Shown: positions 30,935-62,625 of the stretch, in pieces | Position numbering within the stretch: the stretch's first letter is position 1 | How the letters are laid out: every line of letters starts with the position of its first letter | DNA from: a virus | Taxonomy: Duplodnaviria; Heunggongvirae; Uroviricota; Caudoviricetes | DNA length: 64,000 nucleotides | Reading direction: 5' to 3' (one strand) | IMG/VR virus record: IMGVR_UViG_3300034102_002177 | Made by a program: the position numbers and the translations under genes | Notes under the pieces: generated by a model | The model's database searches: none | What the model was told of the DNA's origin: nothing | The model's input: the letters and a program-made list of their open reading frames with translations, nothing else

Positions 30935-30978
30935 TTGTTTTTATTAGGTTTATTTATCTATAAATATCTAAAGATTAT

Positions 30979-40882: not shown

Positions 40883-40909
40883 GGGAGGGGTTAACCTTCC
40901 CTTTTTTTA
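40883..40909. terminator. GGGAGGG-GTTAA-CCTTCCC hairpin plus TTTTTTT, between convergent genes
   Basis: 7-bp stem with T7. Confidence 0.65.
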
Positions 40910-41451: not shown

Positions 41452-41492
41452 ACATATAAATAGTTGTTTATTAAAAAAAAATTTTCTATATT

Positions 41493-43509: not shown

Positions 43510-44748
43510 ATGAAAATTATTATAACTGAAAGTCAATGTAGAATTATTAATGAGGCGTTAGGTGTTCCTGACAATATTCTTGATGCCGCAGAAAAACTAT
43601 TTGAGATAGTATCTAAAGATATTCAAACCATTAATACCAAACAAGAAGAATATAATTTTGAGGGGGATTTAGATATTGAGTTAGGGTATAATAAAAAAAT
43701 AATTATTGATCATTATGAGTTATCGGTTGAGGTAAAAGAATTTGATGAATACAATGGTGAACCGGATGTTCTATCAATGGGTATGGGTCAAACATTTAGG
43801 TTTGATAGAAAAATTATGATGAAAAAAGTTAAACCATCAACGAATGCCGCTTTAGTAATAACATTTGCGGTTTCACCATATTGGGAACCTAACCAGTTAT
43901 ATGAAACTTTAATAAAAAACAAGAGTGAACATTTATCTTCACTAGCGCATGAACTAAAACATAAGTACGATAAACAAGCGAAACAAACTGATTTAATCGG
44001 TAGAGATGTAAAATATAGTGCAACACAAAAAATCTCTACATTTGGAATACCTGTGATAGATAAACAATTTTTTAGGTATATGTACTATACTTCTATTGCT
44101 GAAAATTTAGTAAGACCAACTGAAATTGCATCTGGACTTAAAAGTGAAAATATAACAAAATCTCAATTCAGGGAATTTTTACAAAACAATAGAGTTTATA
44201 AAGAATTAATTGAAATTAAAAATTTTACATACGAAAAACTTATTGAAGGTTTGTATGAAAGGATGGACAGAGTGGATGCATTACTTAACCATATTGGAGA
44301 AGATACGGATGAAATGACGGATCAAGAAAAAGTTGAAAGAGTACTAGAACTTGTATTTATAAATCTTGCAAATATAAAAATTGAAATATTTGATGAAATG
44401 GTTAGTACTGAGAACGATATGTTAAAAAGTTTTTTTAGACAAATGGTGGGTAATGTACCTTCATTTATGGAAGATGATGAAGAAAAAAACGTGGATAAAG
44501 TAAGGAGAAAAATTATAAATAGTATTGTTAAATATGAAAAAGACCCCTTAAGATTCTTCCAAGACGAGTGCGAAAAATTTAATTACATTACAACAAAAAT
44601 GTTGAAAAAAATTGGTAAACTTTATGCTATGGCAAAAGATGATGAACCGGTTAATGAATCTATCATTAATTGGGAACTTCATCAGAAGTTAATGGAAAAA
44701 AAGTATGGAAAAAGACCAATACACAAAAAAATTTCTTACTTAAAGTAA
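43510..44748 (+). CDS. Hypothetical protein
   Basis: 412-aa ORF. Confidence 0.5.
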   Translation: MKIIITESQCRIINEALGVPDNILDAAEKLFEIVSKDIQTINTKQEEYNFEGDLDIELGYNKKIIIDHYELSVEVKEFDEYNGEPDVLSMGMGQTFRFDRKIMMKKVKPSTNAALVITFAVSPYWEPNQLYETLIKNKSEHLSSLAHELKHKYDKQAKQTDLIGRDVKYSATQKISTFGIPVIDKQFFRYMYYTSIAENLVRPTEIASGLKSENITKSQFREFLQNNRVYKELIEIKNFTYEKLIEGLYERMDRVDALLNHIGEDTDEMTDQEKVERVLELVFINLANIKIEIFDEMVSTENDMLKSFFRQMVGNVPSFMEDDEEKNVDKVRRKIINSIVKYEKDPLRFFQDECEKFNYITTKMLKKIGKLYAMAKDDEPVNESIINWELHQKLMEKKYGKRPIHKKISYLK

Positions 44749-44768
44749 ATTAATCAAAATTTTTTTAT

Positions 44769-44776
44769 TATCTTTG
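44769..44776 (+). promoter_or_regulatory. Bacteroidetes-type -7 box TAtcTTTG, 7 nt upstream of a short ORF
   Basis: Exact motif. Confidence 0.5.
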
Positions 44777-44783
44777 TTCTTAT

Positions 44784-44963
44784 ATGAAAAAACCATGTAA
44801 GGAATGTCCTCATTTTATCAAAAATCATCACAATGATATGATTGTTAGTTTTGCCGAAAGAACCGGTAAAAAACATAATTGTCATATGACGGAAGGAAAA
44901 AAAGATTTGTGGAATGTAACGGATAAGAAACTTGAATGTTATGGTAGTAGAAAGGACAGTTAA
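44784..44963 (+). CDS. Small Cys/His-rich (zinc-binding-like) protein, 59 aa. Below the track cutoff
   Basis: MKKPCKECPHFIKNHHND...NCHMTEGKK...ECYG. Promoter immediately upstream. Replaces the antisense track ORF 44754..44978. Confidence 0.4.
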   Translation: MKKPCKECPHFIKNHHNDMIVSFAERTGKKHNCHMTEGKKDLWNVTDKKLECYGSRKDS

Positions 44964-45222
44964 GAAGAAATATATCATTGTGTTTTTAAGTGCTTCGGTT
45001 CTTGAAATTGGGAGTACTTTTTACATTAGTGTGGTCTCAGATAAGGATTATCTTGGTATGATGTTTTTTGCATTTATTGGGCCATTTCTATCATTACCAT
45101 TTGTTGGTTTTATGGTTGAATCAAAAACTTGGAAAGAAAGATTAAAACTTGCTTTATGGTCAGGTTTTGGTTATTTGATTGGTTCATTAATAACTATTAT
45201 ATTTTTTGAAATATTAAAATGA
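44932..45222 (+). CDS. Small membrane protein
   Basis: Three hydrophobic helices. Start uncertain. Confidence 0.35.
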   Translation: MNVMVVERTVKKKYIIVFLSASVLEIGSTFYISVVSDKDYLGMMFFAFIGPFLSLPFVGFMVESKTWKERLKLALWSGFGYLIGSLITIIFFEILK

Positions 45223-45581
45223 AAAAAAAAGAAACAAAATTTGGAACCTATATAGATATGGAAACAAAAAGTAACTCAGAAATAACCGGAGATAAAATCA
45301 CGGTATTCGTAGAAAGATTAAAAAAGATTGGTATTGAAGTTAAACTTGTGGGTAACTATCCTTGGGTTTATATTGATGAAATCTGTGGTATTAAAGTAAA
45401 AGAGAAGTTCGCGGGTAATCACGGGTTTACTATAATCTTTCTTCCTGTAAGAACTGACACACCGCCAAGCGATTTTACCGATATTGGGGAGACATTCAAA
45501 TTGATAAGAAAATACAGTAGACAAGCTCTATTGGTAAAACTTATGAAAGATGATGAAGAAAGTGGAATGTATGAAAATTAA
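45219..45581 (+). CDS. Hypothetical protein
   Basis: 120-aa ORF. Confidence 0.4.
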   Translation: MKKKETKFGTYIDMETKSNSEITGDKITVFVERLKKIGIEVKLVGNYPWVYIDEICGIKVKEKFAGNHGFTIIFLPVRTDTPPSDFTDIGETFKLIRKYSRQALLVKLMKDDEESGMYEN

Positions 45582-45592
45582 AAAAAATAAAA

Positions 45593-46036
45593 ATGGAAAA
45601 ACAAAAATATAGAATTTATTTGGATGATGTAAGAACACCGGTTAGTCCTAACAATGCATTGGTGGATGGTATTCCTGAGTGGACTGTGGTTCGTTCTTAC
45701 GACGAGTTCGTACAAAAGATAAACTCAATTGGTTTGGAGAACATTGAGTTAATCTCATTAGATCACGACTTGGGTGACAGTGCTATGTCAGAATGGTTAT
45801 ATGGTGTTACTAAAAACTATTCAATTAACTACGATAACATTACCGAAAAAACCGGTATGGATTGTACTAAATGGTTAGTGAATCAATGGTTAGATGGTAA
45901 ACCTGTTGTTGAAGTTGTAGTTCATTCCGCAAACGCTGTTGGTAGTGCAAATATGATGGGTTACATTAACAATTACCGACACCTCAATCGTTTACCACAA
46001 AATTGTGTGAGAGTACAAATAGAACATACAGTATAA
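45593..46036 (+). CDS. Hypothetical protein
   Basis: 147-aa ORF. Confidence 0.45.
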   Translation: MEKQKYRIYLDDVRTPVSPNNALVDGIPEWTVVRSYDEFVQKINSIGLENIELISLDHDLGDSAMSEWLYGVTKNYSINYDNITEKTGMDCTKWLVNQWLDGKPVVEVVVHSANAVGSANMMGYINNYRHLNRLPQNCVRVQIEHTV

Positions 46037-46046
46037 AAATAAAGTT

Positions 46047-46307
46047 ATGGAATTAGAAAAATTTGAACAAGCAAAAAAAGTAAAAGAAAACCTTGATAGG
46101 TTGGAAAGACAGAAGTATAAATTGGAATCTGCGCTTAAATCTTGTGGTTTGAGTGTCACGATTGGATTTACACACTCTGGAGGATTCAACAGAAAAGGTG
46201 AGGTCAGTTTCTATAACAAAGAGATTATTAAAGAAATGATCTCTAAAGAACTTGATAGAGTGAATGAAGAAATTGATTTAGTAAAAAAAGAATTTGAAAA
46301 CGTATAA
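46047..46307 (+). CDS. Small coiled-coil protein
   Basis: 86-aa ORF. Confidence 0.4.
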   Translation: MELEKFEQAKKVKENLDRLERQKYKLESALKSCGLSVTIGFTHSGGFNRKGEVSFYNKEIIKEMISKELDRVNEEIDLVKKEFENV

Positions 46308-46310
46308 AAA

Positions 46311-47444
46311 ATGGAAAATTTAAATAGTGTATGTTATGTTGGTGTGATCGGAGAGATATTACCAATAGATGGAGCGGATAACATTGAACTTGCATTGGTT
46401 GGTGGTTGGCAAGCCATTACTAAGAAAGGTGAATATAGTGTTGGTGATAAGGTTGTTGTTGCAACTACCGATGCGGTAATCCCTGTTGAATTATCTGATT
46501 TAATGGGCGTAACTAATTACCTAAGAAAAGGTCAAAGAGTTCGCACCGTTAAACTTCGTAAAGTTTACTCTGAGTGTTTGTTAATACCATTCAAATACTT
46601 GGCACCAAGGTCTTTGGAGAACAATGTAAATGAAGGTCACGACATGATGGAACTGTTAGGTATCACTAAATATGAACCACCAGTTAAGATGGTTGAGATG
46701 AGTGTTGGTGGAAGAAAATTCAAATACCACCAAAACCCGAACTTCCACATTTACTACAAATTCCCAAATATGAAGAACGTACCTGATATGTTCAATGAGG
46801 AGGATGAAGTATGTATCACTCGTAAGTTACACGGAACCAATGCTCGTTACGGTATTGTGAGAAAGAAAAAACTTTCAATCCTTGATAAGATTAAAGGGTG
46901 GTTTGGTAATCAATGGGTTGGTTACGAATACGTTTATGGATCCCACAACGTTGAGAAGGGATCTGACTCTCAAGGTTTTTATGCAACTGATGTGTGGAAA
47001 ACAGTTGCGGAAAAATATGATATCCGTAAAAAACTTTGGGATCACGTTAAAGATACTTTTGATCCTAATGATGTTGGTTCAGGATTTATCATCTATGGTG
47101 AAATCTATGGACACGGAATACAAAAGAATTACGACTATGGTTTAACTGAAATCCGTTTTGCGGGATTTGACGTTGAGGTTGATGGATCTTATGTTGATAA
47201 CATTTACCAATCAACTCATTTTAAATGTTTAGGTTTAGAAGAAGTTGAAACTTTATATTCAGGTCTTTGGTCAAAAGAAGAACAAGATAAATATGTGTTT
47301 AATAACAACATTCAAGGAACTAAAGTTCCTCACGAAGGTATTGTTGTAAAATGTTTATCTGGTAATCGTCATAAGATTGGAAAAGTAATCAACCCTGATT
47401 ATTTAATTTACGGTGAAAAAAATAACGTAGGTGACTCCCATTAA
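46311..47444 (+). CDS. RNA ligase, Rnl5-type (DraRnl/NgrRnl-like)
   Basis: Motif I as KLHGTN (KxHGxN variant characteristic of DraRnl), motif IV EGIVVK, motif V HKIGKV. Confidence 0.65.
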   Translation: MENLNSVCYVGVIGEILPIDGADNIELALVGGWQAITKKGEYSVGDKVVVATTDAVIPVELSDLMGVTNYLRKGQRVRTVKLRKVYSECLLIPFKYLAPRSLENNVNEGHDMMELLGITKYEPPVKMVEMSVGGRKFKYHQNPNFHIYYKFPNMKNVPDMFNEEDEVCITRKLHGTNARYGIVRKKKLSILDKIKGWFGNQWVGYEYVYGSHNVEKGSDSQGFYATDVWKTVAEKYDIRKKLWDHVKDTFDPNDVGSGFIIYGEIYGHGIQKNYDYGLTEIRFAGFDVEVDGSYVDNIYQSTHFKCLGLEEVETLYSGLWSKEEQDKYVFNNNIQGTKVPHEGIVVKCLSGNRHKIGKVINPDYLIYGEKNNVGDSH

Positions 47445-47488
47445 CTTGATGGGATCACTTTTTTTATTTATATTTAAAAAAATAACAA

Positions 47489-47761
47489 ATGAGTTGGGTT
47501 AGAATTGATGTGGATTTAGATGAGGTTTATAATGAAATGAGCCGCAATGATAAAAGAGATATGGCCGAATGGTTACACGAAGATGGAATTTTGGAATCAC
47601 ATCCAAATCCTGAAATACGTAAAGTGGTTAGAGGTGACCGAGAATCTCCAGGGGAAAAAGAATTAAGAGATAATCTCCTTAGAATATGGAATTCTTATTA
47701 TCAGTTAACACAAGAAGATGAAGAAATAATAAAAAAAATAACAAATAAATTACCTTTATAG
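47489..47761 (+). CDS. Hypothetical protein
   Basis: 90-aa ORF. Confidence 0.4.
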   Translation: MSWVRIDVDLDEVYNEMSRNDKRDMAEWLHEDGILESHPNPEIRKVVRGDRESPGEKELRDNLLRIWNSYYQLTQEDEEIIKKITNKLPL

Positions 47762-47762
47762 T

Positions 47763-48863
47763 ATGGGAATAAAACATTTAATTCAGGAAAATCCTAATAT
47801 GGATATAAATTTGGTTCGTTTAATATCTAAACTTGATCCAAGCAAAACAAATAAACTAACACCATTTATGGTAAAAGTTTTTAAAAAAAGAATGGTTGAT
47901 TTTGAAAAAGAAATCACTCAAGAGGAAGGTATTTATGGATTAAGATATGAATATGTTAATAGTAAGATGAGTGATGCAAGTGGTTTTGAAAAATTAATAT
48001 TAACTTGGGTTATAGATCAATTTAGAGCGGAAAATATTGAAATCTTAAGAGAATTTAATGAGGTTTTGGATAAAGGTTTAGTGGATCAAAATGACATATC
48101 TAAATACGAAAATTTTGAAGAGATTACAAATCAATTGTCGGTTGCTAGAACAAAAGATTTATTGAAGAAATCTAGAAAAGAAATCTCTGTTGTCTATGAA
48201 GATGATGAAATTATGATGCTTAAACCATTATCTTTTGAGGCATCTTTGAAATATGGTGCTGGAACAAAATGGTGTACAGCAATGAAAAATGAACCTGAAT
48301 ATTTTTATAGATACTCTAAAAATGGTATTTTAATCTATCTTATTAATAAAGAAACCGGTAGAAAATTTGGGTGTCATTCGGAAAGATATAATGATAATAG
48401 AGTTCAAATCTTTAATGAGATTGATCAGGTTATTGATTCTTTCCATATGGGTTTACCATATGAAAAATTAACTATCTTAATGGATTTAATGGATTCAGAA
48501 AAATATGGTGTTAATTCAGAGTTATTTAGTGAAGAGGAAAAAAGTAAGTATGGGTTAAGAGTGAATAAATATTCGGTAGATGAGGTGATGGATATGCCAA
48601 CTGAAGAAATGCCAGTGAATGAAGAATTACCAAGATTGATGCCAAGATTGAACAGACGAATCCCAATTACGGATCAAGAAATGAGAATAATGGAAGACCC
48701 AATGGTAGAAGAGCAAGGACCGATAGAAATTGAATACAATATGGCTGTACCTGATAGAATGTTAATGAGAGAGATTCAAAAAGAAATTGATTCCATTATG
48801 GTTCTTGATCGTGCGGGAGCTTTCGCTCATCTTGAAAATGAAGAGGGTGACACATTACCATGA
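47763..48863 (+). CDS. KWCT-core paralog family protein, copy 2
   Basis: EIMMLKPLSFEASLKYGAGTKWCTAMK...GILIYLINKE. Confidence 0.55.
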   Translation: MGIKHLIQENPNMDINLVRLISKLDPSKTNKLTPFMVKVFKKRMVDFEKEITQEEGIYGLRYEYVNSKMSDASGFEKLILTWVIDQFRAENIEILREFNEVLDKGLVDQNDISKYENFEEITNQLSVARTKDLLKKSRKEISVVYEDDEIMMLKPLSFEASLKYGAGTKWCTAMKNEPEYFYRYSKNGILIYLINKETGRKFGCHSERYNDNRVQIFNEIDQVIDSFHMGLPYEKLTILMDLMDSEKYGVNSELFSEEEKSKYGLRVNKYSVDEVMDMPTEEMPVNEELPRLMPRLNRRIPITDQEMRIMEDPMVEEQGPIEIEYNMAVPDRMLMREIQKEIDSIMVLDRAGAFAHLENEEGDTLP

Positions 48864-48906
48864 TTAGATTACGAAGATAAACAAGGATAAAAATAAATAA
48901 AATAAT

Positions 48907-49110
48907 ATGCAAACACTAACATTTAACACAACAAAAAGAGAAGTTAAAGTAGTTAACTCTCAAGGGGATACGATTTATAGTCAAGATAACGTCCCAACGG
49001 TAAAAGTAATGGAACAACACTATGAAGTTTATGTTGAGGATTTTGAAGGAAAAAAAATCCCAACATTTAGAGCCCCAATTGCTAACACAAATATGTTTAT
49101 TCAAAAATAG
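48907..49110 (+). CDS. Hypothetical protein
   Basis: 67-aa ORF. Confidence 0.35.
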   Translation: MQTLTFNTTKREVKVVNSQGDTIYSQDNVPTVKVMEQHYEVYVEDFEGKKIPTFRAPIANTNMFIQK

Positions 49111-49116
49111 TAAGTC

Positions 49117-49407
49117 ATGGATGAACCTCAAGAACGTATTAACAAAATGTATTTGAGAATAAATGGTGAAATAACAGATCGTGAAATGCCACCACCTCCA
49201 CCTAAAAAAGGTAAAACTAAAACTTTTACTCTTGATGAAAATCAAGTTAAAAAGTTGGAGGAGTGGCAGAGCCACATAAAGGCAATCTATGGGAGTTATG
49301 GAAACTACGAATATACATTCTCAAGTAGTGGTATAGGACAAAATGTCGTAGTATACAGCGAATTAGCTGACACAGAATTAGATTTGACAGACGTTGATAG
49401 TTGGTAA
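49117..49407 (+). CDS. Hypothetical protein
   Basis: 96-aa ORF followed by a small hairpin and T-run at 49408-49429. Confidence 0.4.
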   Translation: MDEPQERINKMYLRINGEITDREMPPPPPKKGKTKTFTLDENQVKKLEEWQSHIKAIYGSYGNYEYTFSSSGIGQNVVVYSELADTELDLTDVDSW

Positions 49408-49507
49408 ACTGACAAAATGTCAGTATTTTACGAATGGAACATTTTTTGGGAAACTTGGTACGACTGAAAAGTAATAATAAATAAAAAATAAAAACTAAAA
49501 ATTAAAA

Positions 49508-51364
49508 ATGGGAAAAATAATTGGAATTGACTTAGGTACAACAAACTCTTGTGTGGCCGTTATGGAAGGGAATGAACCGGTAGTTATTACAAATAACGAA
49601 GGTAAACGAACAACGCCATCTGTAATCGGATTCATTAAAGATGGTGAAAGAAAGATTGGGGATCCGGCTAAACGACAAGCGGTAACCAATCCTGAAAAAA
49701 CCGTACATTCAATTAAACGATTTATGGGAACAAGTTTTACTGAATCTAAAAATGAGGTAAAGAAAGTTCCTTATAAAGTTGTAAAAGGAGATGGTGGATC
49801 ACCAAGAGTGGATATTGATAAACGACAGTATTCTCCGCAGGAACTTTCCGCAATGGTTTTACAAAAAATGAAACAAACTGCTGAGGATTATTTGGGTGAG
49901 ACGGTTACTGAGGCGGTTATTACGGTACCAGCGTATTTTAATGATGCTCAACGACAGGCAACCAAAGAAGCGGGTGAGATTGCGGGTTTGGAAGTAAAAC
50001 GTATCATTAATGAGCCAACAGCGGCGGCATTAGCATATGGTTTAGATAAAATGTCTAAAGATATGGTAGTGGTTGTGTTTGACTGTGGTGGTGGTACACA
50101 CGATGTTTCTATTCTTGAATTAGGTGATGGTGTATTTGAAGTATTGTCTACTGATGGTGATACTCACTTAGGTGGTGATGACTTTGATCAGGTTATTATT
50201 GAATGGTTAGCAAATGAATTCAAAGATGAGAATGGAATTGATGTGACCAAGGATCCGATGGCGTTACAACGTTTACGAGAAGCGGCAGAAAAGGCAAAAG
50301 TTGAATTATCTTCAACCTCATCAACGGAAATTAATTTACCGTATTTGATGCCGGTAGATGGGATGCCAAAACACTTGGTTAGAACTTTATCAAAATCTAA
50401 ATTTGAACAACTGGCAGATTCATTAATCAAACGAACTATTGAACCTTGTAAGACAGCGTTGAAAAATGCTAAGATGGATGTGTCTGATGTTGATGAAATT
50501 ATCTTGGTTGGAGGTACAACAAGAATTCCGGCAATTCAAGAAGCGGTTAAACAATTCTTTGGTAAGGAACCATCTAAAGGTGTTAATCCTGATGAGGTAG
50601 TTGCTTTAGGTGCGGCGATCCAAGGTGGTGTACTTGCTGGTGATGTTAAAGATGTCTTATTATTAGATGTGACTCCATTATCTTTAGGTATTGAAACTAT
50701 GGGTGGAGTTATGACTAAATTGATTGATGCTAACACCACGATCCCAACTAAAAAATCTCAGGTGTTCTCAACGGCAGTAGATAATCAACCAACAGTTGAG
50801 ATCCACGTACTTCAGGGAGAACGAGCAATGGCAAAAGATAATAAAACCATTGGTAAGTTCAATTTAGATGGTGTTCCACCAGCGATGAGAGGTGTTCCAC
50901 AAATTGAGGTTACGTTTGATATTGATGCGAATGGTATTATCAATGTTTCTGCAATGGATAAAGGTACAAACAAACAACAAACAATTCGTATCGAAGCGTC
51001 CTCAGGTTTATCAAAAGAAGAGATTGAGAAAATGAAACAAGAAGCTGAGTTAAATGCCGAACAGGATAAAAAACTCAGAGAAGATGCTGAAGTTCTAAAC
51101 ACGGCTGATGGTACAATCTTCCAAACTGAGAAGTCAATCAAAGATTTGGAAGATAAATTAACTGAAGAACAAAAGAGTGAACTTGATGGATTACTTGGAA
51201 CGTTAAAAGAATCTTACGCAAAAAAAGACATTGAGAAGATTAATCAAGATATTGAAAATCTTAATAGTCAGTTCCACCATATTAGTCAATCATTGTACGA
51301 ACAAACTACAACTGAAGAAGGTAATGATGCTCCGTCTGACGTTGAATTTGAAGAAGTACTTTAA
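49508..51364 (+). CDS. dnaK: Hsp70 chaperone DnaK
   Basis: [47 protein letters not shown], full substrate-binding and lid domains. Variant [10 protein letters not shown] in place of canonical DLGGGTFDVS. Confidence 0.9.
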
Positions 51365-51403
51365 AAAAGTTATCGGGGCCTCAAAAATAAATTGGGGTCC
51401 CGC

Positions 51404-51432
51404 TTGACTTAACGGTATTTATAACTTATACT
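51404..51432 (+). promoter_or_regulatory. Sigma-70-consensus-like promoter TTGACT-N17-TATACT
   Basis: Read directly. -35 at 51404-51409, -10 at 51427-51432, 21 nt to the ATG at 51454. Confidence 0.45.
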
Positions 51433-51453
51433 TTCATACAAAAAATATTTATT

Positions 51454-51888
51454 ATGACAATTAAGCAAGCTCTGAAACAAAAAAATAAACTGATCAAACA
51501 GATTGGTGAGAACACAAAGTTGATGCAAGAATACAACTCAATAGAGGTTGGAAATGAAAGACCATATAGTTCAATTATACTATTGGCTAAAATCTCTGAA
51601 GACACAAAAGAGTTGGCTAATTTGAAATCAAAAATCCATATTGCCAACACACCGGTATTGGAAGACATCTTTTTGATGTCAGAGTTGAAATCCATTGCTC
51701 AATCACTTAAAAAAATGGATTGTACCGAAGGTAAATCAAATCGTGATCGTTACCGATTAGAAAGTGAGAGTGTTAAAACCTCAGAAATCTCTTTGGTTAG
51801 ACGAAATGAAACAATTAAAGAGTTGGAAACTCGTATTGAAGAAATCCAAGATCGTTTGGATGTATTCAACGCAACCACTCAAATCTAA
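51454..51888 (+). CDS. Coiled-coil protein immediately downstream of dnaK
   Basis: 144-aa ORF. Confidence 0.45.
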   Translation: MTIKQALKQKNKLIKQIGENTKLMQEYNSIEVGNERPYSSIILLAKISEDTKELANLKSKIHIANTPVLEDIFLMSELKSIAQSLKKMDCTEGKSNRDRYRLESESVKTSEISLVRRNETIKELETRIEEIQDRLDVFNATTQI

Positions 51889-52066
51889 TATAGTTTGTGG
51901 ATAGGGTCAAAATGATATGTGTTCTATACATGGAGGCTGCATAGTCGGATAATTGATAGTGATAACGTAATGGTCCCAAACTCATTATTCAAATACTCAA
52001 AAGTCATTTGATTAAAATTTAAAACTCTTGTCTACATAATTTTAATTCTTGAAACAAACTATACGA

Positions 52067-52096
52067 AACCCTCACAGAAATGTGGGGGTTTTTTTG
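52067..52096 (+). terminator. AACCCTCACA-loop-TGTGGGGGTT hairpin plus TTTTTTT, ending a roughly 180-nt non-coding stretch
   Basis: About 9-bp stem with T7. Confidence 0.6.
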
Positions 52097-52122
52097 ACTA
52101 TATGATTTTTATTTATTATTAT
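52094..52122 (+). promoter_or_regulatory. Second sigma-70-consensus-like promoter TTGACT-N17-TATTAT, 7 nt before the ATG at 52130
   Basis: Read directly. Same -35 hexamer and spacing as at 51404. Confidence 0.4.
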
Positions 52123-52129
52123 TACATAA

Positions 52130-52411
52130 ATGAACTCAAACAAGAAAATATTAATTAAAAAGTTTCTTTCCTTACACTATAGTAATTTAGAGTATAGTCC
52201 TAAACGAATGCTGTATTATAAGGAAGGTAAAGTTTATTTTGAGTATCAACCAAAAGACGAAATAATATTTTTGAATTTTAAGTTAATGGTTGAACCAATG
52301 ATAAGAACACTTAGAATTGATGATAAAGATCCTGTCATACTAACAGAAGTTTATAAAGTGATGGAAGAATGGTTTGAGGAGAAGTTTAATATAATAGGTG
52401 CAATAACATAA
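52130..52411 (+). CDS. Hypothetical protein
   Basis: 93-aa ORF. Confidence 0.4.
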   Translation: MNSNKKILIKKFLSLHYSNLEYSPKRMLYYKEGKVYFEYQPKDEIIFLNFKLMVEPMIRTLRIDDKDPVILTEVYKVMEEWFEEKFNIIGAIT

Positions 52412-52414
52412 AGT

Positions 52415-52999
52415 ATGAAAGTATTATTTTTAGATCATGATGGTGTAATTTGTCTCTCCAATAATTGGGGTGGACGAACAAAGAAATGGGCGAAATATCG
52501 TTCTGAAAATCCTGAATCCTCCTCAAATCTAAAAGAGGGTCCGGTGTCTGTACGATTTGATGACTTTGATCAAAAGGCAATTAAGATCCTTAATGAGATT
52601 GTTGAAGAGACAGGATGTGAAATTGTGGTAAGTTCAGATTGGAAGCTACACGCAACTCTTGAAGAACTTGGTGAATATTATGAATTACATGGGATAAGTA
52701 AAAAACCAATTGCGTTAACACCAAATATACAAGATTGTAAAGTTCATGGTAATTTATTTATATGGTCACCAAGATGGGATTTAGAACAAACACGAACTAT
52801 TGAAATCAGACAATATCTTCAGGATCATCCTGAGGTTACACATTGGGTTTCTGTTGATGATTTAAATATGGGTAAAATTGGTGAGGATTGGAAAGATGTA
52901 TGGGCGATAGATAATTTTGTTTTAACGCCAAGATCAAATGAGGGAATAAAACAGAGCGGAGTTAAAGAAAAAATATTAAAGTTTTTGAAAAATGACTAA
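52415..52999 (+). CDS. HAD-superfamily phosphatase-like protein (T4 Pnk 3'-phosphatase-domain-like)
   Basis: N-terminal VLFLDHDGVI = hhhhDxDGV motif I, comparable to T4 Pnk VIFDVDGTL. Confidence 0.45.
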   Translation: MKVLFLDHDGVICLSNNWGGRTKKWAKYRSENPESSSNLKEGPVSVRFDDFDQKAIKILNEIVEETGCEIVVSSDWKLHATLEELGEYYELHGISKKPIALTPNIQDCKVHGNLFIWSPRWDLEQTRTIEIRQYLQDHPEVTHWVSVDDLNMGKIGEDWKDVWAIDNFVLTPRSNEGIKQSGVKEKILKFLKND

Positions 53000-53390
53000 A
53001 AATATAGAAGAAGAAATGAATGAGTATCTTGAGTCCATTGGAGGACTTGAGAGTGGGTTTTTTACGGATAGACCACCAATTACTGATAGTGGTTTTTTTA
53101 GTGTTGGTTTGGGTTGGTACCCAATCATTAAAGATCTAATAGAAGATCTCATTAAACTTGGATGGAATAAACAATTGTGTCAGGTTAAAGAAAAATTTGG
53201 TGGATTACGGTTTTACATTAATGAGGGATCGGATGAAATACATAAAAGAATCCGACTTGCTGAAGATCAAAGTTATGAAATCTGTGAGATCTGCGGTGAA
53301 AAAGGGGAGTTAAGAACAAATATAGGTTGGTATAGTACATTATGTGAAAATCATTACAATGAAAAATATAAATCAAATATTCAAAAATAA
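52992..53390 (+). CDS. Zinc-finger hypothetical protein
   Basis: CEICGEKG...CENH. Confidence 0.4.
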   Translation: MTKNIEEEMNEYLESIGGLESGFFTDRPPITDSGFFSVGLGWYPIIKDLIEDLIKLGWNKQLCQVKEKFGGLRFYINEGSDEIHKRIRLAEDQSYEICEICGEKGELRTNIGWYSTLCENHYNEKYKSNIQK

Positions 53391-53670
53391 TAGACACCTG
53401 ATGGATGAACCTGAAGTTATGGAGTTAATAGAGTATTGTAGAGAATTAGAAGGAGACGTTATGGAAGTGGAGATCAATAGACAATACGATAAAGAAGAAA
53501 TCCTACATAACGTGGTTAAAGAAATCTATAGTAGTTGTCGGCAACTAATCAAAGATGAGGAAGATTCTGTTAGATTTGGTGAAACTCCGAGAGTTGATTT
53601 TGAAAAATCTATCACTAACCTTAAAGAGTATATTGAGGATATAAATAGAACATACAAGTTTGGGTTATGA
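53344..53670 (+). CDS. Hypothetical protein
   Basis: 108-aa ORF. Confidence 0.35.
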   Translation: MKIITMKNINQIFKNNRHLMDEPEVMELIEYCRELEGDVMEVEINRQYDKEEILHNVVKEIYSSCRQLIKDEEDSVRFGETPRVDFEKSITNLKEYIEDINRTYKFGL

Positions 53671-53984
53671 AAAAGATAAGATTAAGTGAAAATTGTTTTG
53701 GTCCTGATGTTGAAATTGATGATGAGTCATTATTTATACATGAGTATGATAATAGAAATCCTGAGATGATTAGTGATTTACAAGATCAATTAATTGATAA
53801 ATTAAAATCATTAAAAAACAATTTGGGAATGAGTGATTGGACTGAAATTACAATGATGGTTATTAATAGTGGTGATGAGTTTGAATATGATGTGGATAAC
53901 TCAAAAGAATACGAACCTTGCGATCAGTGTGGTAATTGGAACCATAATCACATATATATAAAAAAAGATAAAAATGATGAATAA
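53667..53984 (+). CDS. Hypothetical protein
   Basis: 105-aa ORF. Confidence 0.35.
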   Translation: MKKIRLSENCFGPDVEIDDESLFIHEYDNRNPEMISDLQDQLIDKLKSLKNNLGMSDWTEITMMVINSGDEFEYDVDNSKEYEPCDQCGNWNHNHIYIKKDKNDE

Positions 53985-54276
53985 GATTATTATAATGGAA
54001 AAGGAACCGTACTTGGTTTCAGATGAAGAGATCCAATTAGGAGATGTTGCAATTGTAACGGTGGGCAATCAATACCCTTCAAGAGTTGTTTGTGAAAACG
54101 AAACGGTACTATCCTTAATAAAAGATCCAAAATTAACTCTAACTAAGAGTTATAAGTTGGTTGGTGAACCTGATAAAGTAAAATTACCTGAAGCCAGAAT
54201 CAATACCATAATTGAGAATGGTGGTATATGTGATGTTATAATTGATGGTGCGGAACTTAAATTTACTACGGTATGA
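53974..54276 (+). CDS. Hypothetical protein
   Basis: 100-aa ORF. Confidence 0.35.
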   Translation: MMNKIIIMEKEPYLVSDEEIQLGDVAIVTVGNQYPSRVVCENETVLSLIKDPKLTLTKSYKLVGEPDKVKLPEARINTIIENGGICDVIIDGAELKFTTV

Positions 54277-54372
54277 TGTTAATAGAAGGTATATTACATT
54301 TGGTTGGGATTGGTTTTTTACTTATTGTTATGCCAATATGTTGGATTATAAAAAACTATAAAAATAAAAAAT

Positions 54373-54927
54373 ATGGTCATAGAAATTAATAATTTTTTAT
54401 CGTACGAAGAATGTGATAATTTAATAAGTTTAGCCTCAGATATTTTTGATGAAGTTGGAGTTCTTGGTGAGAGTATTGAAGGGTATAGAGTTGCAAAAGG
54501 GGCTTGGTTAGATGAAGAACATGGGGATGTTGTTATAAAATATAGAGACCTTATTTCTGAGACGACCAAACTACCAAAAATTAATATGGAAAGTATTCAT
54601 GTTGTTAAATATAGTGTTGGTGAAGAATATAAAGATCATCATGATTTTTTTCATCCTGGTGAAGAATACTATGAGGATGAGGTAAATAGAGGTGGACAAA
54701 GATTAAAAACGGCTTTGGTTTACTTAAATGATGATTTTGAAGGTGGAGAAACAAATTTCCCAAATTTAAATATTAAAGTTGATCCTAAAAAAGGTAAACT
54801 TGTATTGTGGGACAACATTAAAGATGATGGTTCTTTAGATTACGATAGCCTTCATGCTGGATTACCCGTAAAAAGTGGTTACAAGTATATTGCGGTAATT
54901 TGGATTAGAGAGAATGAATTTTATTAA
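54373..54927 (+). CDS. 2OG-Fe(II) oxygenase, prolyl 4-hydroxylase-like
   Basis: HHDFFHP (HxD), GGETNFPNL, LHAGLPV distal His. P4H alpha-subunit-like. Confidence 0.7.
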   Translation: MVIEINNFLSYEECDNLISLASDIFDEVGVLGESIEGYRVAKGAWLDEEHGDVVIKYRDLISETTKLPKINMESIHVVKYSVGEEYKDHHDFFHPGEEYYEDEVNRGGQRLKTALVYLNDDFEGGETNFPNLNIKVDPKKGKLVLWDNIKDDGSLDYDSLHAGLPVKSGYKYIAVIWIRENEFY

Positions 54928-54980
54928 AAATTTGTTTTATTTAAAAAATAATTACTATATTTGTCTAATAATATAATTTT

Positions 54981-55217
54981 ATGGACCCAATCAAAGCAAA
55001 TTTATTAAGTCAAACTTTGGAAATGACATACACCCAAGAGGCGGATTGTTGTACAACTGAGGAACAATATTTAACGATCAAAACAGATAATGGTGGTGGT
55101 GGTGATTTTTATGTCATTGAGACAAAAAGATGGGCATTTGATACTGTTGAAGAGATCATTGAATTATTAAATCAATTTAAAGAAAAACACCTTAAAATAA
55201 AAGAAGAAAATCTATGA
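54981..55217 (+). CDS. Hypothetical protein
   Basis: 78-aa ORF. Confidence 0.35.
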   Translation: MDPIKANLLSQTLEMTYTQEADCCTTEEQYLTIKTDNGGGGDFYVIETKRWAFDTVEEIIELLNQFKEKHLKIKEENL

Positions 55218-55456
55218 AAAAGTTAATATTAATTACTTTAGTTGGGATAGTATTGTTTTCTTGTAAGAGAAAAGAATATAAATATGAAATTCACGGGAAA
55301 GTTTATATCCCAACCTCAGGGTTGAACCCAATGCATGATGCAATATGGTATACGGATACAATTAGTTTTGATGGTGACACATTATATTATTTTAATAGTG
55401 ATGGGTCTGAAGTAAGAATTTATCCACCGTATATTTTAAAAGATAATTCAAAATGA
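55214..55456 (+). CDS. Small lipoprotein (lipobox VLFSC)
   Basis: MKKLILITLVGIVLFSCKRKE. Confidence 0.45.
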   Translation: MKKLILITLVGIVLFSCKRKEYKYEIHGKVYIPTSGLNPMHDAIWYTDTISFDGDTLYYFNSDGSEVRIYPPYILKDNSK

Positions 55457-55866
55457 AGATAGGAATAACTTGCTCCTGTTTTGATTTATTTCATGCGGGA
55501 CACGTAAAGATGTTGGAGGAAGCTAAAACTCAATGTGATTATTTAATTATTGCGTTACAAACAGATCCAACAATTGATAGACCAGAAAAAAACAAACCAA
55601 TACAATCGGTCGTTGAAAGATACATTCAACTTAAAGGTTGTAAATTCGTTGATGAGATCATACCATACGAAACTGAAAAAGATTTAGAAGATCTTTTTAA
55701 CACATTAAAATTAGATGTTAGAATTATTGGTGAGGACTATAAGGGTAAAGATTTCACCGCAAAACAAATATGTTTAGATAGGAGTATTGTGTTATACTAC
55801 AATGAAAGAAAACACAATTTCTCAAGTACAGAACTTAAAAAAAGAATAAACAATGGCAAAAATTGA
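55453..55866 (+). CDS. Cytidylyl/adenylyltransferase of the HxGH nucleotidyltransferase superfamily (HldE C-domain/TagD-like)
   Basis: GITCSCFDLFHAGHVKMLEEAK. Confidence 0.7.
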   Translation: MKIGITCSCFDLFHAGHVKMLEEAKTQCDYLIIALQTDPTIDRPEKNKPIQSVVERYIQLKGCKFVDEIIPYETEKDLEDLFNTLKLDVRIIGEDYKGKDFTAKQICLDRSIVLYYNERKHNFSSTELKKRINNGKN

Positions 55867-56746
55867 TGAACTAAGAAAAAAATACCCAAAAGTTAATAAA
55901 TCTACGGGTGATAAATTTTTTGAGGGAGATAAAACACCAACCAAAAAATATCTTGAATTTATGTTTAAGATGTGGTCAACAAGAAATGAACGTCCAGTTG
56001 AGGGAGTATCGGCACCTCAGTATGTTAAAATAATTAATGAGTTTGATCAGTTGTTACCATATATTCAAAATAAAGACATTTATAGTAGTCAATATAAATC
56101 TATGATGCAGTTATTTAGGATAGTTGAAAATGCTAAAGCATTAAAAGAGGAAAATGAATTTATTCGTGAAGATCATATTGATGTTTTAATTGAAAATGAT
56201 GATTATCTTTTAATTAGTCCTTTAACTTTAAAGGGATCCCTAAAATATGGTGCGGATACTAAATGGTGTACCGCCAGTAAATCAAGTTCTTATCAGTTTA
56301 CAAGTTACACTAAAGACGGTTATTTGTTTTATTTGATCTCAAAAAAAGAAAGAGCTAAAAATTATAATAAGGTTGCATTTTATTCACGTAGTAAAAATGA
56401 ACACTTGACCACATATTATACAATTTATAATCAAATTGATACTGAAGTTAATGAGCAAAAAGTTATTTTGAATGATTGGACTATGTTTGAACTATTTGAA
56501 ATAATGGCTAAAATAAGAGTTTATACTTATGAAAAGTATATAATTGAAAAGGCTAAAACTGATGTTGAAAAAACTGTTAATGTTCTGAAATCAGTTAATT
56601 TAGATGAATTTTTACGACAAGTTAATTTGTTGGAGAAATACGGAGAAAGTGGGAAAATAGAAGGAAAAGATGAATTGGAAAAAGTAATTCAAACTTTAAG
56701 TAAAAAAACAGAAGATTTATTTGGTAAATCTAAAATTAATGTGTAG
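55853..56746 (+). CDS. KWCT-core paralog family protein, copy 3
   Basis: DYLLISPLTLKGSLKYGADTKWCTASK...YLFYLISKK. Confidence 0.55.
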   Translation: MAKIDELRKKYPKVNKSTGDKFFEGDKTPTKKYLEFMFKMWSTRNERPVEGVSAPQYVKIINEFDQLLPYIQNKDIYSSQYKSMMQLFRIVENAKALKEENEFIREDHIDVLIENDDYLLISPLTLKGSLKYGADTKWCTASKSSSYQFTSYTKDGYLFYLISKKERAKNYNKVAFYSRSKNEHLTTYYTIYNQIDTEVNEQKVILNDWTMFELFEIMAKIRVYTYEKYIIEKAKTDVEKTVNVLKSVNLDEFLRQVNLLEKYGESGKIEGKDELEKVIQTLSKKTEDLFGKSKINV

Positions 56747-56789
56747 ATTTGTCATTCACAAGTTAAATCATATAAAATAAATGAAGTAA

Positions 56790-57011
56790 ATGTTTAAAAC
56801 AGAAAAGTTAGGACTATGGGGAGTCATAATACTAACAACGATCTATCTCTATCTAATCAATTTATATTTTGAATATATCCTTAGTAGAGAGGTGGCAAGT
56901 GAAATCCAAATTGTTGTAAGTTTAGTAGCCTTGGCTTACACAATTTTTCAAGTAAAATTAATAGTAAAAAAGGCAGTTAGTTTATTTAAAAAAGAAGAAA
57001 AAAATGATTAG
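56790..57011 (+). CDS. Small membrane protein
   Basis: Two TM helices. Confidence 0.4.
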   Translation: MFKTEKLGLWGVIILTTIYLYLINLYFEYILSREVASEIQIVVSLVALAYTIFQVKLIVKKAVSLFKKEEKND

Positions 57012-57906
57012 TATTGTATTATTTATTGTGTTTATTGCTATTGGGGCAATGATGTTTTTATCAGGTCGTGCAAATGACGATGACCGTAGAACTATAATGG
57101 GAATTGCCGTTGCGGTGATTGGAATTTTGGTTACAATATTCCAACCATATTCAATTGAAAAAATTGATTCGGGTCACAAAGGATTAAAAATTAATTTGAT
57201 TGGTAATCAACGAGGAGTGTCAAGTTATCAATATAAGACAGGTTGGGTTTTTTATAATAGTTGGACAGAACAAGTTTTAGAGTTCCCAACATACCAACAA
57301 CATATTGAATACGAAGATCAAGGTGTGATCCTAAAAGGTGGGTTCTCTGCGACTATTAAACCAACGTTCAACTATTCATTACGTGAAGATGCGATTGGAG
57401 ATATGTTTGTTAACTTAAGAAAAGATATCAAAGAGATTGAACAAGGTTGGTTGAAAAATGCCATTATCGGAGCGGTTAATGATGTTGCTAATACATGGGA
57501 AGTAGATAGTATCTTTAATCACCGACAAGCATTTGAGGCGGCTATTGTAACCGAATGTAATGTACGTTTATCTAAGTGGTTTAATGTGTCTCAATTACGA
57601 ACTAATATTATCCCACCTGATGCATTACAAGAATCTATTATAGCAAAAACAAAGGCAATCCAACAAGCGGAAGCATCAGAGCAACAAGCGATCGCTGCGA
57701 TCTCTGAAGGTAGACGTAAGGTGGCTGTGGCACGAGCTGACTCGGCAGAAACTATCATCAACGCACAAGCGGCGGCATTGGCAATCAAAATTAAACAAAA
57801 CCAATTGTCTCCATTGTATATTGAATATGTTAAGTGGAATGCTTGGGATGGGAAACTTCCTACAACAGTGGCTGGTGGATCAGGAACTTTATTAAACATT
57901 AAGTAA
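57004..57906 (+). CDS. SPFH/Band-7 (HflK/C, prohibitin-like) membrane protein
   Basis: N-terminal TM, then a C-terminal AIQQAEASEQQAIAAISEGRRKVAVARADSAE Ala/Glu-rich coiled coil typical of SPFH proteins. Confidence 0.5.
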   Translation: MISIVLFIVFIAIGAMMFLSGRANDDDRRTIMGIAVAVIGILVTIFQPYSIEKIDSGHKGLKINLIGNQRGVSSYQYKTGWVFYNSWTEQVLEFPTYQQHIEYEDQGVILKGGFSATIKPTFNYSLREDAIGDMFVNLRKDIKEIEQGWLKNAIIGAVNDVANTWEVDSIFNHRQAFEAAIVTECNVRLSKWFNVSQLRTNIIPPDALQESIIAKTKAIQQAEASEQQAIAAISEGRRKVAVARADSAETIINAQAAALAIKIKQNQLSPLYIEYVKWNAWDGKLPTTVAGGSGTLLNIK

Positions 57907-57927
57907 TTCACTAATATTATAATTAAA

Positions 57928-57956
57928 CCCCATCTTTTTTACAGGTGGGGTTTTTT
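57928..57956 (+). terminator. CCCCATC-loop-GGTGGGG hairpin plus TTTTTT
   Basis: 7-bp stem with one G-U pair, T6. Confidence 0.65.
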
Positions 57957-57973
57957 ATTTAAAAAACTTTTAT

Positions 57974-57981
57974 TATATTTG
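57974..57981 (+). promoter_or_regulatory. Bacteroidetes-type -7 box TAtaTTTG, 4 nt before the ATG at 57986
   Basis: Exact motif. Implies a leaderless or near-leaderless transcript. Confidence 0.4.
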
Positions 57982-57985
57982 TATT

Positions 57986-58219
57986 ATGGAAAAAAGAAGT
58001 ACACACTACGGAGACGTACAAAAATGGATTGAGAAAGTTATTGACTCTTGTGAGACATATGAACAAACTCGTTCAGCAAGAGTTTTAGTTTGGAATTTTG
58101 AAAAACAAATGATTAGAAATAAAGTAGATAGTGGTATTCTTTATACTATAGGACATTATTTACGTGACGTGATTAGTTACAAAGTTCAGGCAATACAAGG
58201 AAAATATTTAGAATCATAA
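57986..58219 (+). CDS. Hypothetical protein
   Basis: 77-aa ORF. Confidence 0.4.
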   Translation: MEKRSTHYGDVQKWIEKVIDSCETYEQTRSARVLVWNFEKQMIRNKVDSGILYTIGHYLRDVISYKVQAIQGKYLES

Positions 58220-58232
58220 AAAATAAAACAAT

Positions 58233-58406
58233 ATGGAAAATAAAATAGATAAGATCGCGATAGCAATTGGAATTGTTATTGGTTGTGTTTTAGGTAGTAT
58301 CATGTCGTACTCAATGTTGAAGGAAGCTAAAAAATGTGAACTACTTGTTGAAGAAAATAAAATGTTGAGAGATATGCTCTATGAAGAGCAAAACGATGGT
58401 CAGTAA
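58233..58406 (+). CDS. Small single-TM protein, 57 aa. Below the track cutoff
   Basis: MENKIDKIAIAIGIVIGCVLGSIMSY... fills an otherwise empty gap. Its stop overlaps the next start (TAAATG). Confidence 0.35.
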   Translation: MENKIDKIAIAIGIVIGCVLGSIMSYSMLKEAKKCELLVEENKMLRDMLYEEQNDGQ

Positions 58407-58652
58407 ATGAAAGGTACGTTAATATATTTTGAACCTGATGAAGAAACAGGTTATAAAGGTAATTGGGTGATACAGATACCTACTGAAAAACCTTATAATA
58501 ATATATTCTCACTTTCTGATGAAAGTGTGAAATGGATTAAAGAAAATAATCCACCAAAAAAAATTGATGTTGATTTTGTGGTAATTTGTGATTGTCATTA
58601 TGATGAGGAAACAAATACTGCTAAACACGCATTAGTTGCCACAATAAAATAA
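58407..58652 (+). CDS. Hypothetical protein
   Basis: 81-aa ORF. Confidence 0.4.
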   Translation: MKGTLIYFEPDEETGYKGNWVIQIPTEKPYNNIFSLSDESVKWIKENNPPKKIDVDFVVICDCHYDEETNTAKHALVATIK

Positions 58653-58666
58653 TAAATAAAAAATTA

Positions 58667-59293
58667 ATGGAAAATTACGAAATACTTGAAAATGGTTTAA
58701 TAAAACAAAAATCTATCGTTAATAAGATCCAAACGTATGATACAAAATATGTGGATGAAAGATATAATCAATACGGTGAAAAAGGACCTCAAATGGCTGG
58801 TATTCGACTTGGATATTTAGTTGGGACTTTAGGTTACTGGCCACAATCCATACTAGATATTGGATATGGTAATGGTGATTTCTTAAAGGTCTGTAAAGGT
58901 GTTATTGAGTCATATGGTAATGATGTTTCAGGATATCCTGTACCTGAAGGTGTTACATACACTGATAATATATTTGATAAACATTACGAGGTGATCTCAT
59001 TCTTTGATGTATTGGAACATTTTGAGGAAATTGATTTCGTAAAAGATTTGGATTGTAATTACGTCTACATTAGTTTACCTTGGTGTCACAACTTTAGTGA
59101 AGAATGGTTTATGAATTGGAAACACAGAAGACCTGATGAACATTTGTGGCATTTTAATGAAAAGTCAATTGAAAACTTCTTCAATGAAATGGGGTATGAC
59201 ATGGTTGATTATTCAAATGTTGAAGATTTAATAAGAGTTTCTGGTGAAGAATATCCTAACATTTTAACTTGTATCTTTAAGAAAAGAAAATAA
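58667..59293 (+). CDS. Class I SAM-dependent methyltransferase
   Basis: Motif I ILDIGYGNGDF, motif II FFDVLEH. Confidence 0.65.
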   Translation: MENYEILENGLIKQKSIVNKIQTYDTKYVDERYNQYGEKGPQMAGIRLGYLVGTLGYWPQSILDIGYGNGDFLKVCKGVIESYGNDVSGYPVPEGVTYTDNIFDKHYEVISFFDVLEHFEEIDFVKDLDCNYVYISLPWCHNFSEEWFMNWKHRRPDEHLWHFNEKSIENFFNEMGYDMVDYSNVEDLIRVSGEEYPNILTCIFKKRK

Positions 59294-60210: not shown

Positions 60211-60212
60211 TA

Positions 60213-62624: not shown

Positions 62625-62625
62625 G

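Follow-up and report, generated by a model that had tools for sequence, protein, structure and literature searches.

A TTGAC-N17 promoter flavour and a trimmed primary-type sigma factor in a predicted Bacteroidota jumbo phage

Introduction

Phage sigma factors such as SPO1 gp28, T4 gp55 and phiEco32 gp36 redirect the host RNA polymerase in transcription cascades. A single sigma factor can also serve promoters of unequal build, as in E. coli, where a strong -35 element and an extended -10 element compensate for each other, and where the residues R-E-R..R-Q of sigma-70 region 4.2 read the hexamer TTGACA. Here we describe two promoter-like elements, TTGACT-N17-TATACT (site 1) and TTGACT-N17-TATTAT (site 2), and a phage-encoded sigma factor that may read them, in the IMG/VR virus record IMGVR_UViG_3300034102_002177 (Caudoviricetes), of which a stretch of 64,000 nucleotides (nt), hereafter the window, was analysed.

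Both elements resemble the E. coli sigma-70 promoter in their two hexamers at 17-base-pair (bp) spacing, each matching the consensus at five of six positions, and in a distance to the ATG that would suit a start some 7 nt downstream of the -10 hexamer. Their placement immediately after terminators is likewise that of E. coli sigma-70 promoters, as in the early promoters of its phages. They differ from this type in conserving T at -6, which is a mark of the Bacteroidota -7 box rather than of the E. coli -10 hexamer, and in having neither an extended -10 TG nor a downstream Shine-Dalgarno sequence; moreover, the predicted host belongs to the Bacteroidota, where canonical promoters are reported to be inactive (PMC12632263).

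The promoter of the Bacteroidota sigma-A (sigma-ABfr) consists of a -33 TTTG and a -7 TAnnTTTG element (Bayley 2000, as cited in PMC7366714). The phage sites share with it the TTG-to-TA distance of about 20 nt, TA at -12/-11, T at -7/-6 and A-rich leaders or leaderless starts, and both types occur in one genome, grading into each other upstream of a Dam methylase gene. Unlike the sigma-ABfr promoter, the phage sites have a near-invariant full TTGAC(A/T) instead of a weak TTG, they do not contain the defining TTTG, and their flavour was undetectable in 467 host upstream regions. In Bacteroides, a canonical E. coli promoter is non-functional (PMC12632263) and canonical -35/-10 promoters are reported to be inactive (PMC7366714). 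Flavobacterium psychrophilum has only sigma-A, sigma-54 and extracytoplasmic function (ECF) sigma factors, and none of its six promoter motifs has the TTGAC-N17 form (PMC9723704). The literature that we searched contained no account of this flavour or of the phage sigma factor, and the report on bS21 jumbo phages (PMC9723584) mentions neither sigma factors nor promoters.

Results

Position of the two sites

Both motifs were present where the original prediction had placed them, on the plus strand at 51404-51432 (site 1) and 52094-52122 (site 2), and each scores 10/12 against TTGACA/TATAAT. At site 1, the -35 hexamer TTGACT (51404-51409) is followed after a 17-nt spacer by the -10 hexamer TATACT (51427-51432) and by a T at -6. 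Downstream lies the open reading frame (ORF) of a 144-amino-acid (aa) protein (51454-51888, plus strand, ATG at 51454); from the promoter geometry reported in PMC9723704, transcription would start near 51439, leaving a leader of about 15 nt. A hairpin with an 11-bp stem and a 7-nt loop (51374-51402, plus strand) ends 1 nt before the -35 hexamer. The segment 51365-51412 folds with a minimum free energy of -23.0 kcal/mol, and its U-tract is poor, so that it has the marks of an intrinsic terminator only in part. The hairpin looks like a terminator or a 3'-end structure of dnaK, and in the related loci L002 and L004 a G-to-A change turns the G.U wobble of its stem into a Watson-Crick pair (GGGACC/GGTCCC).

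Site 2 is built alike, with TTGACT at 52094-52099, a 17-nt spacer and TATTAT at 52117-52122, all on the plus strand. It precedes an operon (52130-52999, plus strand) of a 93-aa ORF (52130-52411, ATG at 52130) and a HAD_SAK_2 phosphatase-like gene (52415-52999; PF18143, E = 1.8e-19). A start at 52129/52130 would yield a leaderless mRNA, or one with a 1-nt leader, for the whole operon. The hairpin on its 5' side (52065-52092, plus strand; -17.6 kcal/mol) has a 12-bp stem, a GAAA loop and seven following T, and thus shows both the GC hairpin and the U-tract of an intrinsic terminator; its T-run (52087-52095) reaches into the -35 hexamer. Since both sites directly follow terminator hairpins, new promoters are to be expected at exactly these places, and the architecture, position and insulation of the two sites, which begin within 2 nt after a hairpin, are those that working promoters would have.

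Counts across the whole window did not distinguish the motif from chance. The pattern TTGAC-N16-18-TAnnnT occurs seven times on the plus and eight times on the minus strand, and a generic sigma-70 scan of 44001-64000 gave 100 sites against 110 +/- 10 expected, which is no enrichment. Such counts cannot serve as support without a positional test. In the 36 intergenic zones upstream of genes (2,720 nt in total), with expectations from dinucleotide shuffles, TTGACN-N17-TAnnnT was found three times (23791, 51404 and 52094) against 0.068 expected (P = 0.0002). The original prediction had staked its promoters on a frequency above chance and a bias towards gene starts; the former was all but lost across the window, and the latter was borne out in the upstream zones.

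The window was also said to contain host-type TAnnTTTG promoters alongside the two sites. This agrees with our counts: the same zones hold 12 TAnnTTTG boxes against 3.0 +/- 1.7 expected, with two on the opposite strand, so that both kinds of element coexist. A canonical box, TATCTTTG (12740-12747, plus strand), heads the operon that holds the phage sigma gene, and further perfect intergenic boxes start at 6324, 27127, 30979, 38228, 39577, 54956 and 57974.

Conservation of site 1

Homologs of the 144-aa gene came from 31 loci initially and from more later, and yielded 29 distinct upstream sequences for genes of 49-100% identity. In these sequences, which were anchored on the best consensus, a partly circular procedure that placed three of them one promoter upstream, the -35 base frequencies were T 1.0, T 1.0, G 0.97, A 1.0 and C 0.90; in the -10 hexamer TA was invariant and the final T reached 0.93, with 0.90 for the T at -6. 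The fifth -10 position was C or A in 26 of the 29. All 29 have a spacer of 17, while spacer sequence and flanks diverge. TTTG was absent from the box in every lineage (0/29), and T at -8 occurred in two. The distance from the -10 hexamer to the ATG is bimodal (19-22 nt and 6-8 nt), the second mode corresponding to leaderless mRNA, and both modes fit a predicted start about 7 nt after the hexamer. Scores of 9-12/12 at fixed ATG distances in nearly every lineage are not those of drifting AT-rich DNA. From this comparison of sequences, we conclude that site 1 is a clear phylogenetic footprint under purifying selection across the whole phage family, and that it is very probably a real promoter.

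The conserved hexamers might instead form an operator of another DNA-binding protein, or act at the RNA level in the 3' end of dnaK. Read-through transcripts allow base pairing between the -35 TTGACT and AAGUUA upstream of the hairpin, and a conserved palindrome near dnaK shows that regulatory sites exist in this region. This explanation is nevertheless highly improbable, because the element stays with the 144-aa gene where the upstream gene is not dnaK, as is often the case (L007-L031), and because it has no dyad symmetry. Its two hexamers lie at exactly 17 bp, as do the -35 and -10 elements of the sigma-70 family, both ATG-distance modes fit a transcription start, and the arrangement recurs before nine other gene families.

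Even less credible is an origin as foreign promoters on cassettes (morons) acquired from Proteobacteria or Firmicutes phages, which would be silent or irrelevant in a Bacteroidota host. The hexamers do resemble the E. coli consensus, and the genes concerned are small insulated units with their own terminators; against this stand the long-term purifying selection on the hexamers in a family whose other signals are of Bacteroidota type, the T at -6 and leaderless geometry that are common with the TAnnTTTG class, and the lack of a Shine-Dalgarno sequence in the A-rich leaders.

The 144-aa protein shows a weak resemblance to DIP1984 (NCBIfam NF038048, E = 0.006, below the cut-off), and its profile gave a sub-threshold match to PDB 3kdq (E = 0.37). 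An antisense TTGACC-N17-TAGATT (51910-51882, minus strand) overlaps the stop codon of its gene and is kept only in close relatives, where conservation is uninformative. The palindrome near dnaK, ACTGACAAAATGTCAGT, is perfect and lies just 5' of that gene (49408-49424). Its TGACA..TGTCA core is kept in five related loci (L002, L004, L053, L062 and L079) despite differing surroundings; its role might be that of an operator, or of a weak terminator. Readings of the region upstream of dnaK as a sigma-54 (TGGCAC) or an ECF (GGAAC..CGAC) promoter were rejected, because neither the spacing nor the -12 element agrees with them and the strings lack conservation.

Conservation of site 2

Homologs of the 93-aa ORF are found in few loci. 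In L002 and L004, TTGACT-N17-TAT(T/A)(A/T)T is kept 6-7 nt before the ATG, and the site is also kept in L001 and L003, although the ORF is 59% identical there and the preceding hairpin is unrelated. Its -10-to-ATG distance of 6-8 nt recurs in 7 of the 33 TTGAC-class promoters of the phage family. In L048, L068 and L044, a small ORF precedes the 93-aa homolog, and its promoter is a leaderless TATCTTTG-N4-ATG.

Site 2 taken alone could be a chance match, assembled from the T-run of the terminator (TTTTTTTGACT) and the AT-rich DNA before the ATG, with the operon transcribed by read-through or from another signal. At least 70 relatives have no conserved site upstream of the HAD gene, distant relatives have a different promoter of TAnnTTTG type, and TATTAT-like strings are frequent in DNA of 30% GC, in line with the chance-level counts across the window. 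We consider this explanation unlikely, because TTGACTATATGA and TAT at N17 are kept in L001 and L003 with their different upstream hairpin, the 7-nt distance to the ATG matches the recurrent leaderless geometry of the family, the strong terminator directly upstream creates the need for a new promoter, and the three hits in upstream zones are improbable by chance. Site 2 is rather likely to be a promoter. Of the two sites named in the original prediction, site 1 is strongly conserved, and site 2 only among close relatives.

The non-coding gap of 241 nt that separates the 144-aa gene from the operon and includes site 2 (51889-52129) is richer in GC than the other spacers. No Rfam match was obtained anywhere in the window, including this gap, and about 1.7 kb of other sequence replaces the gap in L002.

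The TTGAC-N17 flavour in the phage family and in Bacteroidota

For the family, 495 non-redundant upstream regions from the window and 111 loci (1.32 Mb) were scanned at spacings of 10-25. TTGACN-Nx-TAnnnT occurred 33 times at x = 17 and 0-12 times at any other x; in the whole sequences the counts were 55 and 8-26, respectively, so that the 17-bp spacer is non-random. When 80 loci were added and the downstream proteins were clustered, ten gene families carried TTGAC-N17, namely the 144-aa gene, three small-lipoprotein families, Dam, N4/N6 methylase, dnaK (in one lineage), the 93-aa ORF and two hypothetical proteins. The consensus of the flavour is TTGACa-N17-TAta(c/a)T-T. In 348 upstream regions that remained unexplained, a k-mer search for a third promoter motif returned mostly terminator stems and tRNA fragments.

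The host set was obtained by scanning species genomes for the peptide YAVWW[IV]xQSI, which gave 120 loci, almost all from Bacteroidota or the Fibrobacteres-Chlorobi-Bacteroidetes (FCB) group, and 467 upstream regions. These contained 151 TAnnTTTG boxes, with a TTG peak at N16/17 (15 and 19 against at most 6), and TTGAC in the absence of TTTG formed no N17 peak in them (2, range 0-3, which is background level). Three cultured Bacteroidota phages with no annotated sigma factor, 11b, phi38:1 (first 50 kb) and B40-8, had no TTGAC-N16-18 site in 78 upstream regions, against 24 TAnnTTTG boxes. The flavour is therefore enriched in the phage family relative to both the Bacteroidota genomes and these three phages. 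It also stays with particular genes: no lineage has TTTG before the 144-aa gene, and the sigma operon has a TAnnTTTG promoter in nearly all relatives.

Relation to the TAnnTTTG promoters

The octamers at the -10 position are TATACTTT at site 1 and TATTATTA at site 2, and neither matches TAnnTTTG. Both have T at -7 and -6 and either C or A at -8, and neither has the G at -5. With the published box position of -12 to -5 (PMC9723704), the two flavours are superimposable; what sets them apart is positions -8 and -5 and the AC(A) in the -35 element. In the family upstream regions, TTGnnn-Nx-TAnnTTTG occurred 41 times at x = 17 against 0-12 times elsewhere, in the same TTG register as the TTGAC class, and a weak TTTG is visible in the position matrix of the TAnnTTTG promoters. 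The third member of the TTGAC class in the window is a hybrid, TTGACA-N17-TATTTTTA (23791-23821, plus strand), upstream of a Dam methylase gene with its ATG at 23834. The description of the two sites as textbook E. coli elements is thus not upheld, given the TTG-N20-TA geometry that is common with the TAnnTTTG promoters of the phage, the T at -6 in about 90% and the gradation among the Dam promoters. We regard both sites as a probable -35-dependent variant of the Bacteroidota promoter type and not as truly of E. coli type.

The start codon most often lies 4 nt from a TAnnTTTG box (67 of the 294 boxes that have an ORF start within 45 nt, in L001-L111; in the window at 57974-57988 and 41487-41501). 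With the box at -12 to -5, a 4-nt gap would put +1 on the A of the ATG, making many phage genes leaderless; in host Bacteroidota, only 3.7-5.5% are reported to be leaderless (PMC7366714, PMC9723704).

The string [A/C]TATAAATA occurs in four short intergenic regions (5341-5349, 23796-23804, 30958-30966 and 41454-41462), of which three separate divergent genes. It resembles the T4 late-promoter core and might represent an operator or an additional class of promoter.

The phage sigma factor

The candidate reader of the TTGACA class is a 266-aa sigma factor encoded at 13268-14068 (plus strand), with Sigma70 regions 1.2, 2 and 4. Its best PDB matches are SigA proteins of Firmicutes (E of about 1e-45), and it scores far below every NCBIfam equivalog cut-off. 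Among cultured and deposited phages, a search with this protein returned no hit of more than 40% identity; within the phage family it is highly conserved, its top 120 homologs having 266-276 aa and an identity of at least 79%. The protein is 35-43% identical overall to the sigma-A proteins of Flavobacterium, Chitinophagaceae, Hymenobacter, Segatella and Sphingobacterium. It has the phylum strings VAKQYQNQGL, FISYAVWWxxQSI, RLPxN and ERVRQIKEKAxRRLR, whose B. subtilis and E. coli equivalents are AKRYVGRGM, FSTYATWWIRQAI, RIPVH and ERIRQIEAKALRKLR.

Compared with a reference length of about 287 aa, the phage protein is shorter, owing to the loss of about 24 residues from region 3. There is no region 1.1, the protein opening with region 1.2; its first residues are MKDKNLGIPINQDE, the otherwise invariant N-terminus MRQLKI(T/S)KxxTNRE being absent. 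K replaces the first R of TRER. From these features, the protein is, as we read it, a trimmed derivative of Bacteroidota sigma-A and not an ortholog, and the missing N-terminal and region 3 segments are the only candidates for a new specificity that its sequence offers. The RpoD-like phage sigma factor of the original prediction is a Bacteroidota sigma-A derivative, and the residues of its regions 2.4 and 4.2 offer no grounds for an E. coli-like specificity. In nearly all of about 49 distinct relatives, the sigma operon has a perfect TAnnTTTG box in the absence of TTGAC, 20-25 nt before the first ATG.

A second phage sigma factor, of ECF type (40891-41451, minus strand; Sigma70_r2, r4_2, ECF), matches TIGR02985 Sig70_bacteroi1 and the GFO_1088 family, and is not expected to read TTGACA/TATAAT. 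A typical Bacteroidota rpoD (MRQLKI..., 287-288 aa) is found on three short contigs (L129, L141 and L191) that are placed, probably by mis-binning, in metagenome-assembled genomes under the names Bifidobacterium breve, Erythrobacter sanguineus and Polynucleobacter meluiroseus.

Gene content of the window and predicted host

The GC content of the window is about 30%. Its ORFs, about 100 in number, are densely packed and lie almost exclusively on the plus strand, and no tRNAs were found. Pfam matches include DnaK, DnaJ, thioredoxin, glutaredoxin, Dam, N4/N6 methylases, an SbcCD-like nuclease, RNA ligase, NUDIX, a histone-like Hc1, amidase, glycosyltransferases and the two sigma factors. In a near-identity search of cultured and deposited phages no close relative was found, the best hit being a 70% match over 11% of the query in a 635-kb uncultured phage. 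The window groups with a large family of IMG/VR contigs, several of which are 274-373 kb long, and we take it to belong to a jumbo phage. Three features point to a Bacteroidota host: the TAnnTTTG boxes, the best matches of the ECF sigma factor to Bacteroidetes ECF families and the apparent origin of the primary-type sigma factor.

Two further observations concern other genes of the window. A 57-aa ORF (20786-20959) matches the chlamydial histone H1-like Hc1 (PF07432, E = 2e-17), an unusual gene for a phage. Two large proteins (221-2755, and 3529-5115 on the minus strand) have long Pro-Thr-rich linkers (PTPTPTPT) and many cysteines; they had no Pfam match and may be surface or fibre proteins.

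Discussion

Our results uphold the original interpretation in part. Our favoured reading is a transcription cascade. Host sigma-A would read the TAnnTTTG promoter of the operon that holds the phage sigma gene (12740-14068), and the phage sigma factor would then direct the host core polymerase to TTGACA-N17-TATAmT promoters, relying on full contact with the -35 element and dispensing with the TTTG portion of the -7 box. We favour it because of the phage-specific enrichment of the TTGAC-N17 flavour, the stability of the flavour per gene and the reported inactivity of canonical promoters in Bacteroides (PMC12632263; PMC7366714). We give the full cascade, including the step that depends on the phage sigma factor, a probability of roughly 45%, and that this protein is the factor needed at both sites is plausible at somewhat less than even odds. 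More tentatively, it may be a natural specificity variant that serves a private promoter class of 290-370 kb freshwater phages, one that host sigma-A ignores. In that case, the candidate determinants would be the N-terminal MRQLKITK segment, the deletion in region 3, the R-to-K change in region 4.2 and an L-to-I change in region 2.4.

The cascades of SPO1 gp28, T4 gp55 and phiEco32 gp36 are similar in that here, too, a phage sigma gene lies behind a host-type promoter and a second flavour is enriched in the phage. The sigma factors of those phages are highly diverged and their promoters are unlike those of the host, whereas the present sigma factor keeps the host DNA-reading residues and its two flavours differ at few positions.

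The main rival is a single sigma specificity with interchangeable elements, in which host sigma-A, and possibly the phage sigma factor equally, reads both flavours, TTGACA compensates an imperfect -7 box, and all promoters form one graded class; this is nearly as likely as the cascade. It agrees with the identical geometry of the two flavours, which peak at the same 17-nt spacing, with the R-E-R..R-Q of region 4.2 that host sigma-A retains, and with the combination of TTGACC-N17 and TATATTTG in L105. The compensation of elements in E. coli provides a parallel, as individual promoters with a consensus -35 tend not to have a complete -7 box (1/33 against 37/106); it differs in that the compensating form appears confined to the phage family and is not general in host promoters.

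A number of our results weigh against a separate phage-sigma class, and several of them speak for one graded class. T is retained at -6 in 0.94 of the TTGAC class, in addition to 0.90 of the site 1 orthologs; octamers of the form TAnnTTTn occur in 7 of the 10 TTGAC gene families, and TATATTTA, TATTTTTA and TATATTTT are common in the class. Orthologous Dam promoters grade or swap between flavours: TTGACA is partnered by the perfect TATTTTTG in L232 and L240, by TATTTTTA in the window, L245 and L306, and by TATTTTTT in L279, the last base of the TATTTTT box thus being G, A or T (position -5) across sister lineages that have TTGACA, and other Dam lineages (among loci L232-L311) have TTGAAA/TTGATT-N17-TATATTTG-N4-ATG with a perfect leaderless box. 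The HAD operon is of TTGAC type in the window and of leaderless TAnnTTTG type in L048 and L068; the conservation of site 2 is limited to close relatives, the site being absent from more distant ones and from about 70 HAD-gene loci. The anticorrelation of TTGAC and TTTG is not significant by independent gene family (2/11 against 20/63), and as a proof of two discrete classes it was discarded, since it is lost on collapsing the instances to gene families. The genes served (methylases, small lipoproteins, a chaperone neighbour) are unlike a typical middle or late class. Finally, the DNA-contact segments of the phage sigma factor, FISYAVWWvkQSI and tKERVRQIKEKAlRRLR, are nearly identical to FISYAVWWIRQSI and TRERVRQIKEKAIRRLR of host sigma-A, so that sequence predicts no change of specificity.

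Three findings argue against a single graded class. Neither the host genomes nor the three other Bacteroidota phages have such promoters above background. The 29 diverged promoters of the 144-aa gene never gain TTTG and avoid T at -8, even though the box is one or two substitutions away. Canonical -35/-10 promoters are reported to be inactive in Bacteroides (PMC12632263, PMC7366714).

These findings bear on promoter recognition in Bacteroidota, which are known for promoters unreadable by other bacteria and for not reading canonical ones; which parts of the proteins account for this is understood only in part. A near-canonical promoter kept over long divergence, together with a trimmed host-type primary sigma factor, would provide matched natural pairs of sigma factor and promoter. 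If the phage sigma factor is the reader, the phage family would have gained a transcription cascade from a minimal change of specificity, and the pair would offer orthogonal promoter and sigma parts for Bacteroidota genetics. If the promoters form a private class, a comparison of the two sigma factors would point to the determinants of Bacteroidota-specific promoter recognition. Should host sigma-A be the reader, a full TTGACA would be shown to stand in for the "essential" TTTG in the -7 box, and annotation and the building of expression constructs would call for a revised working definition of the Bacteroidota promoter.

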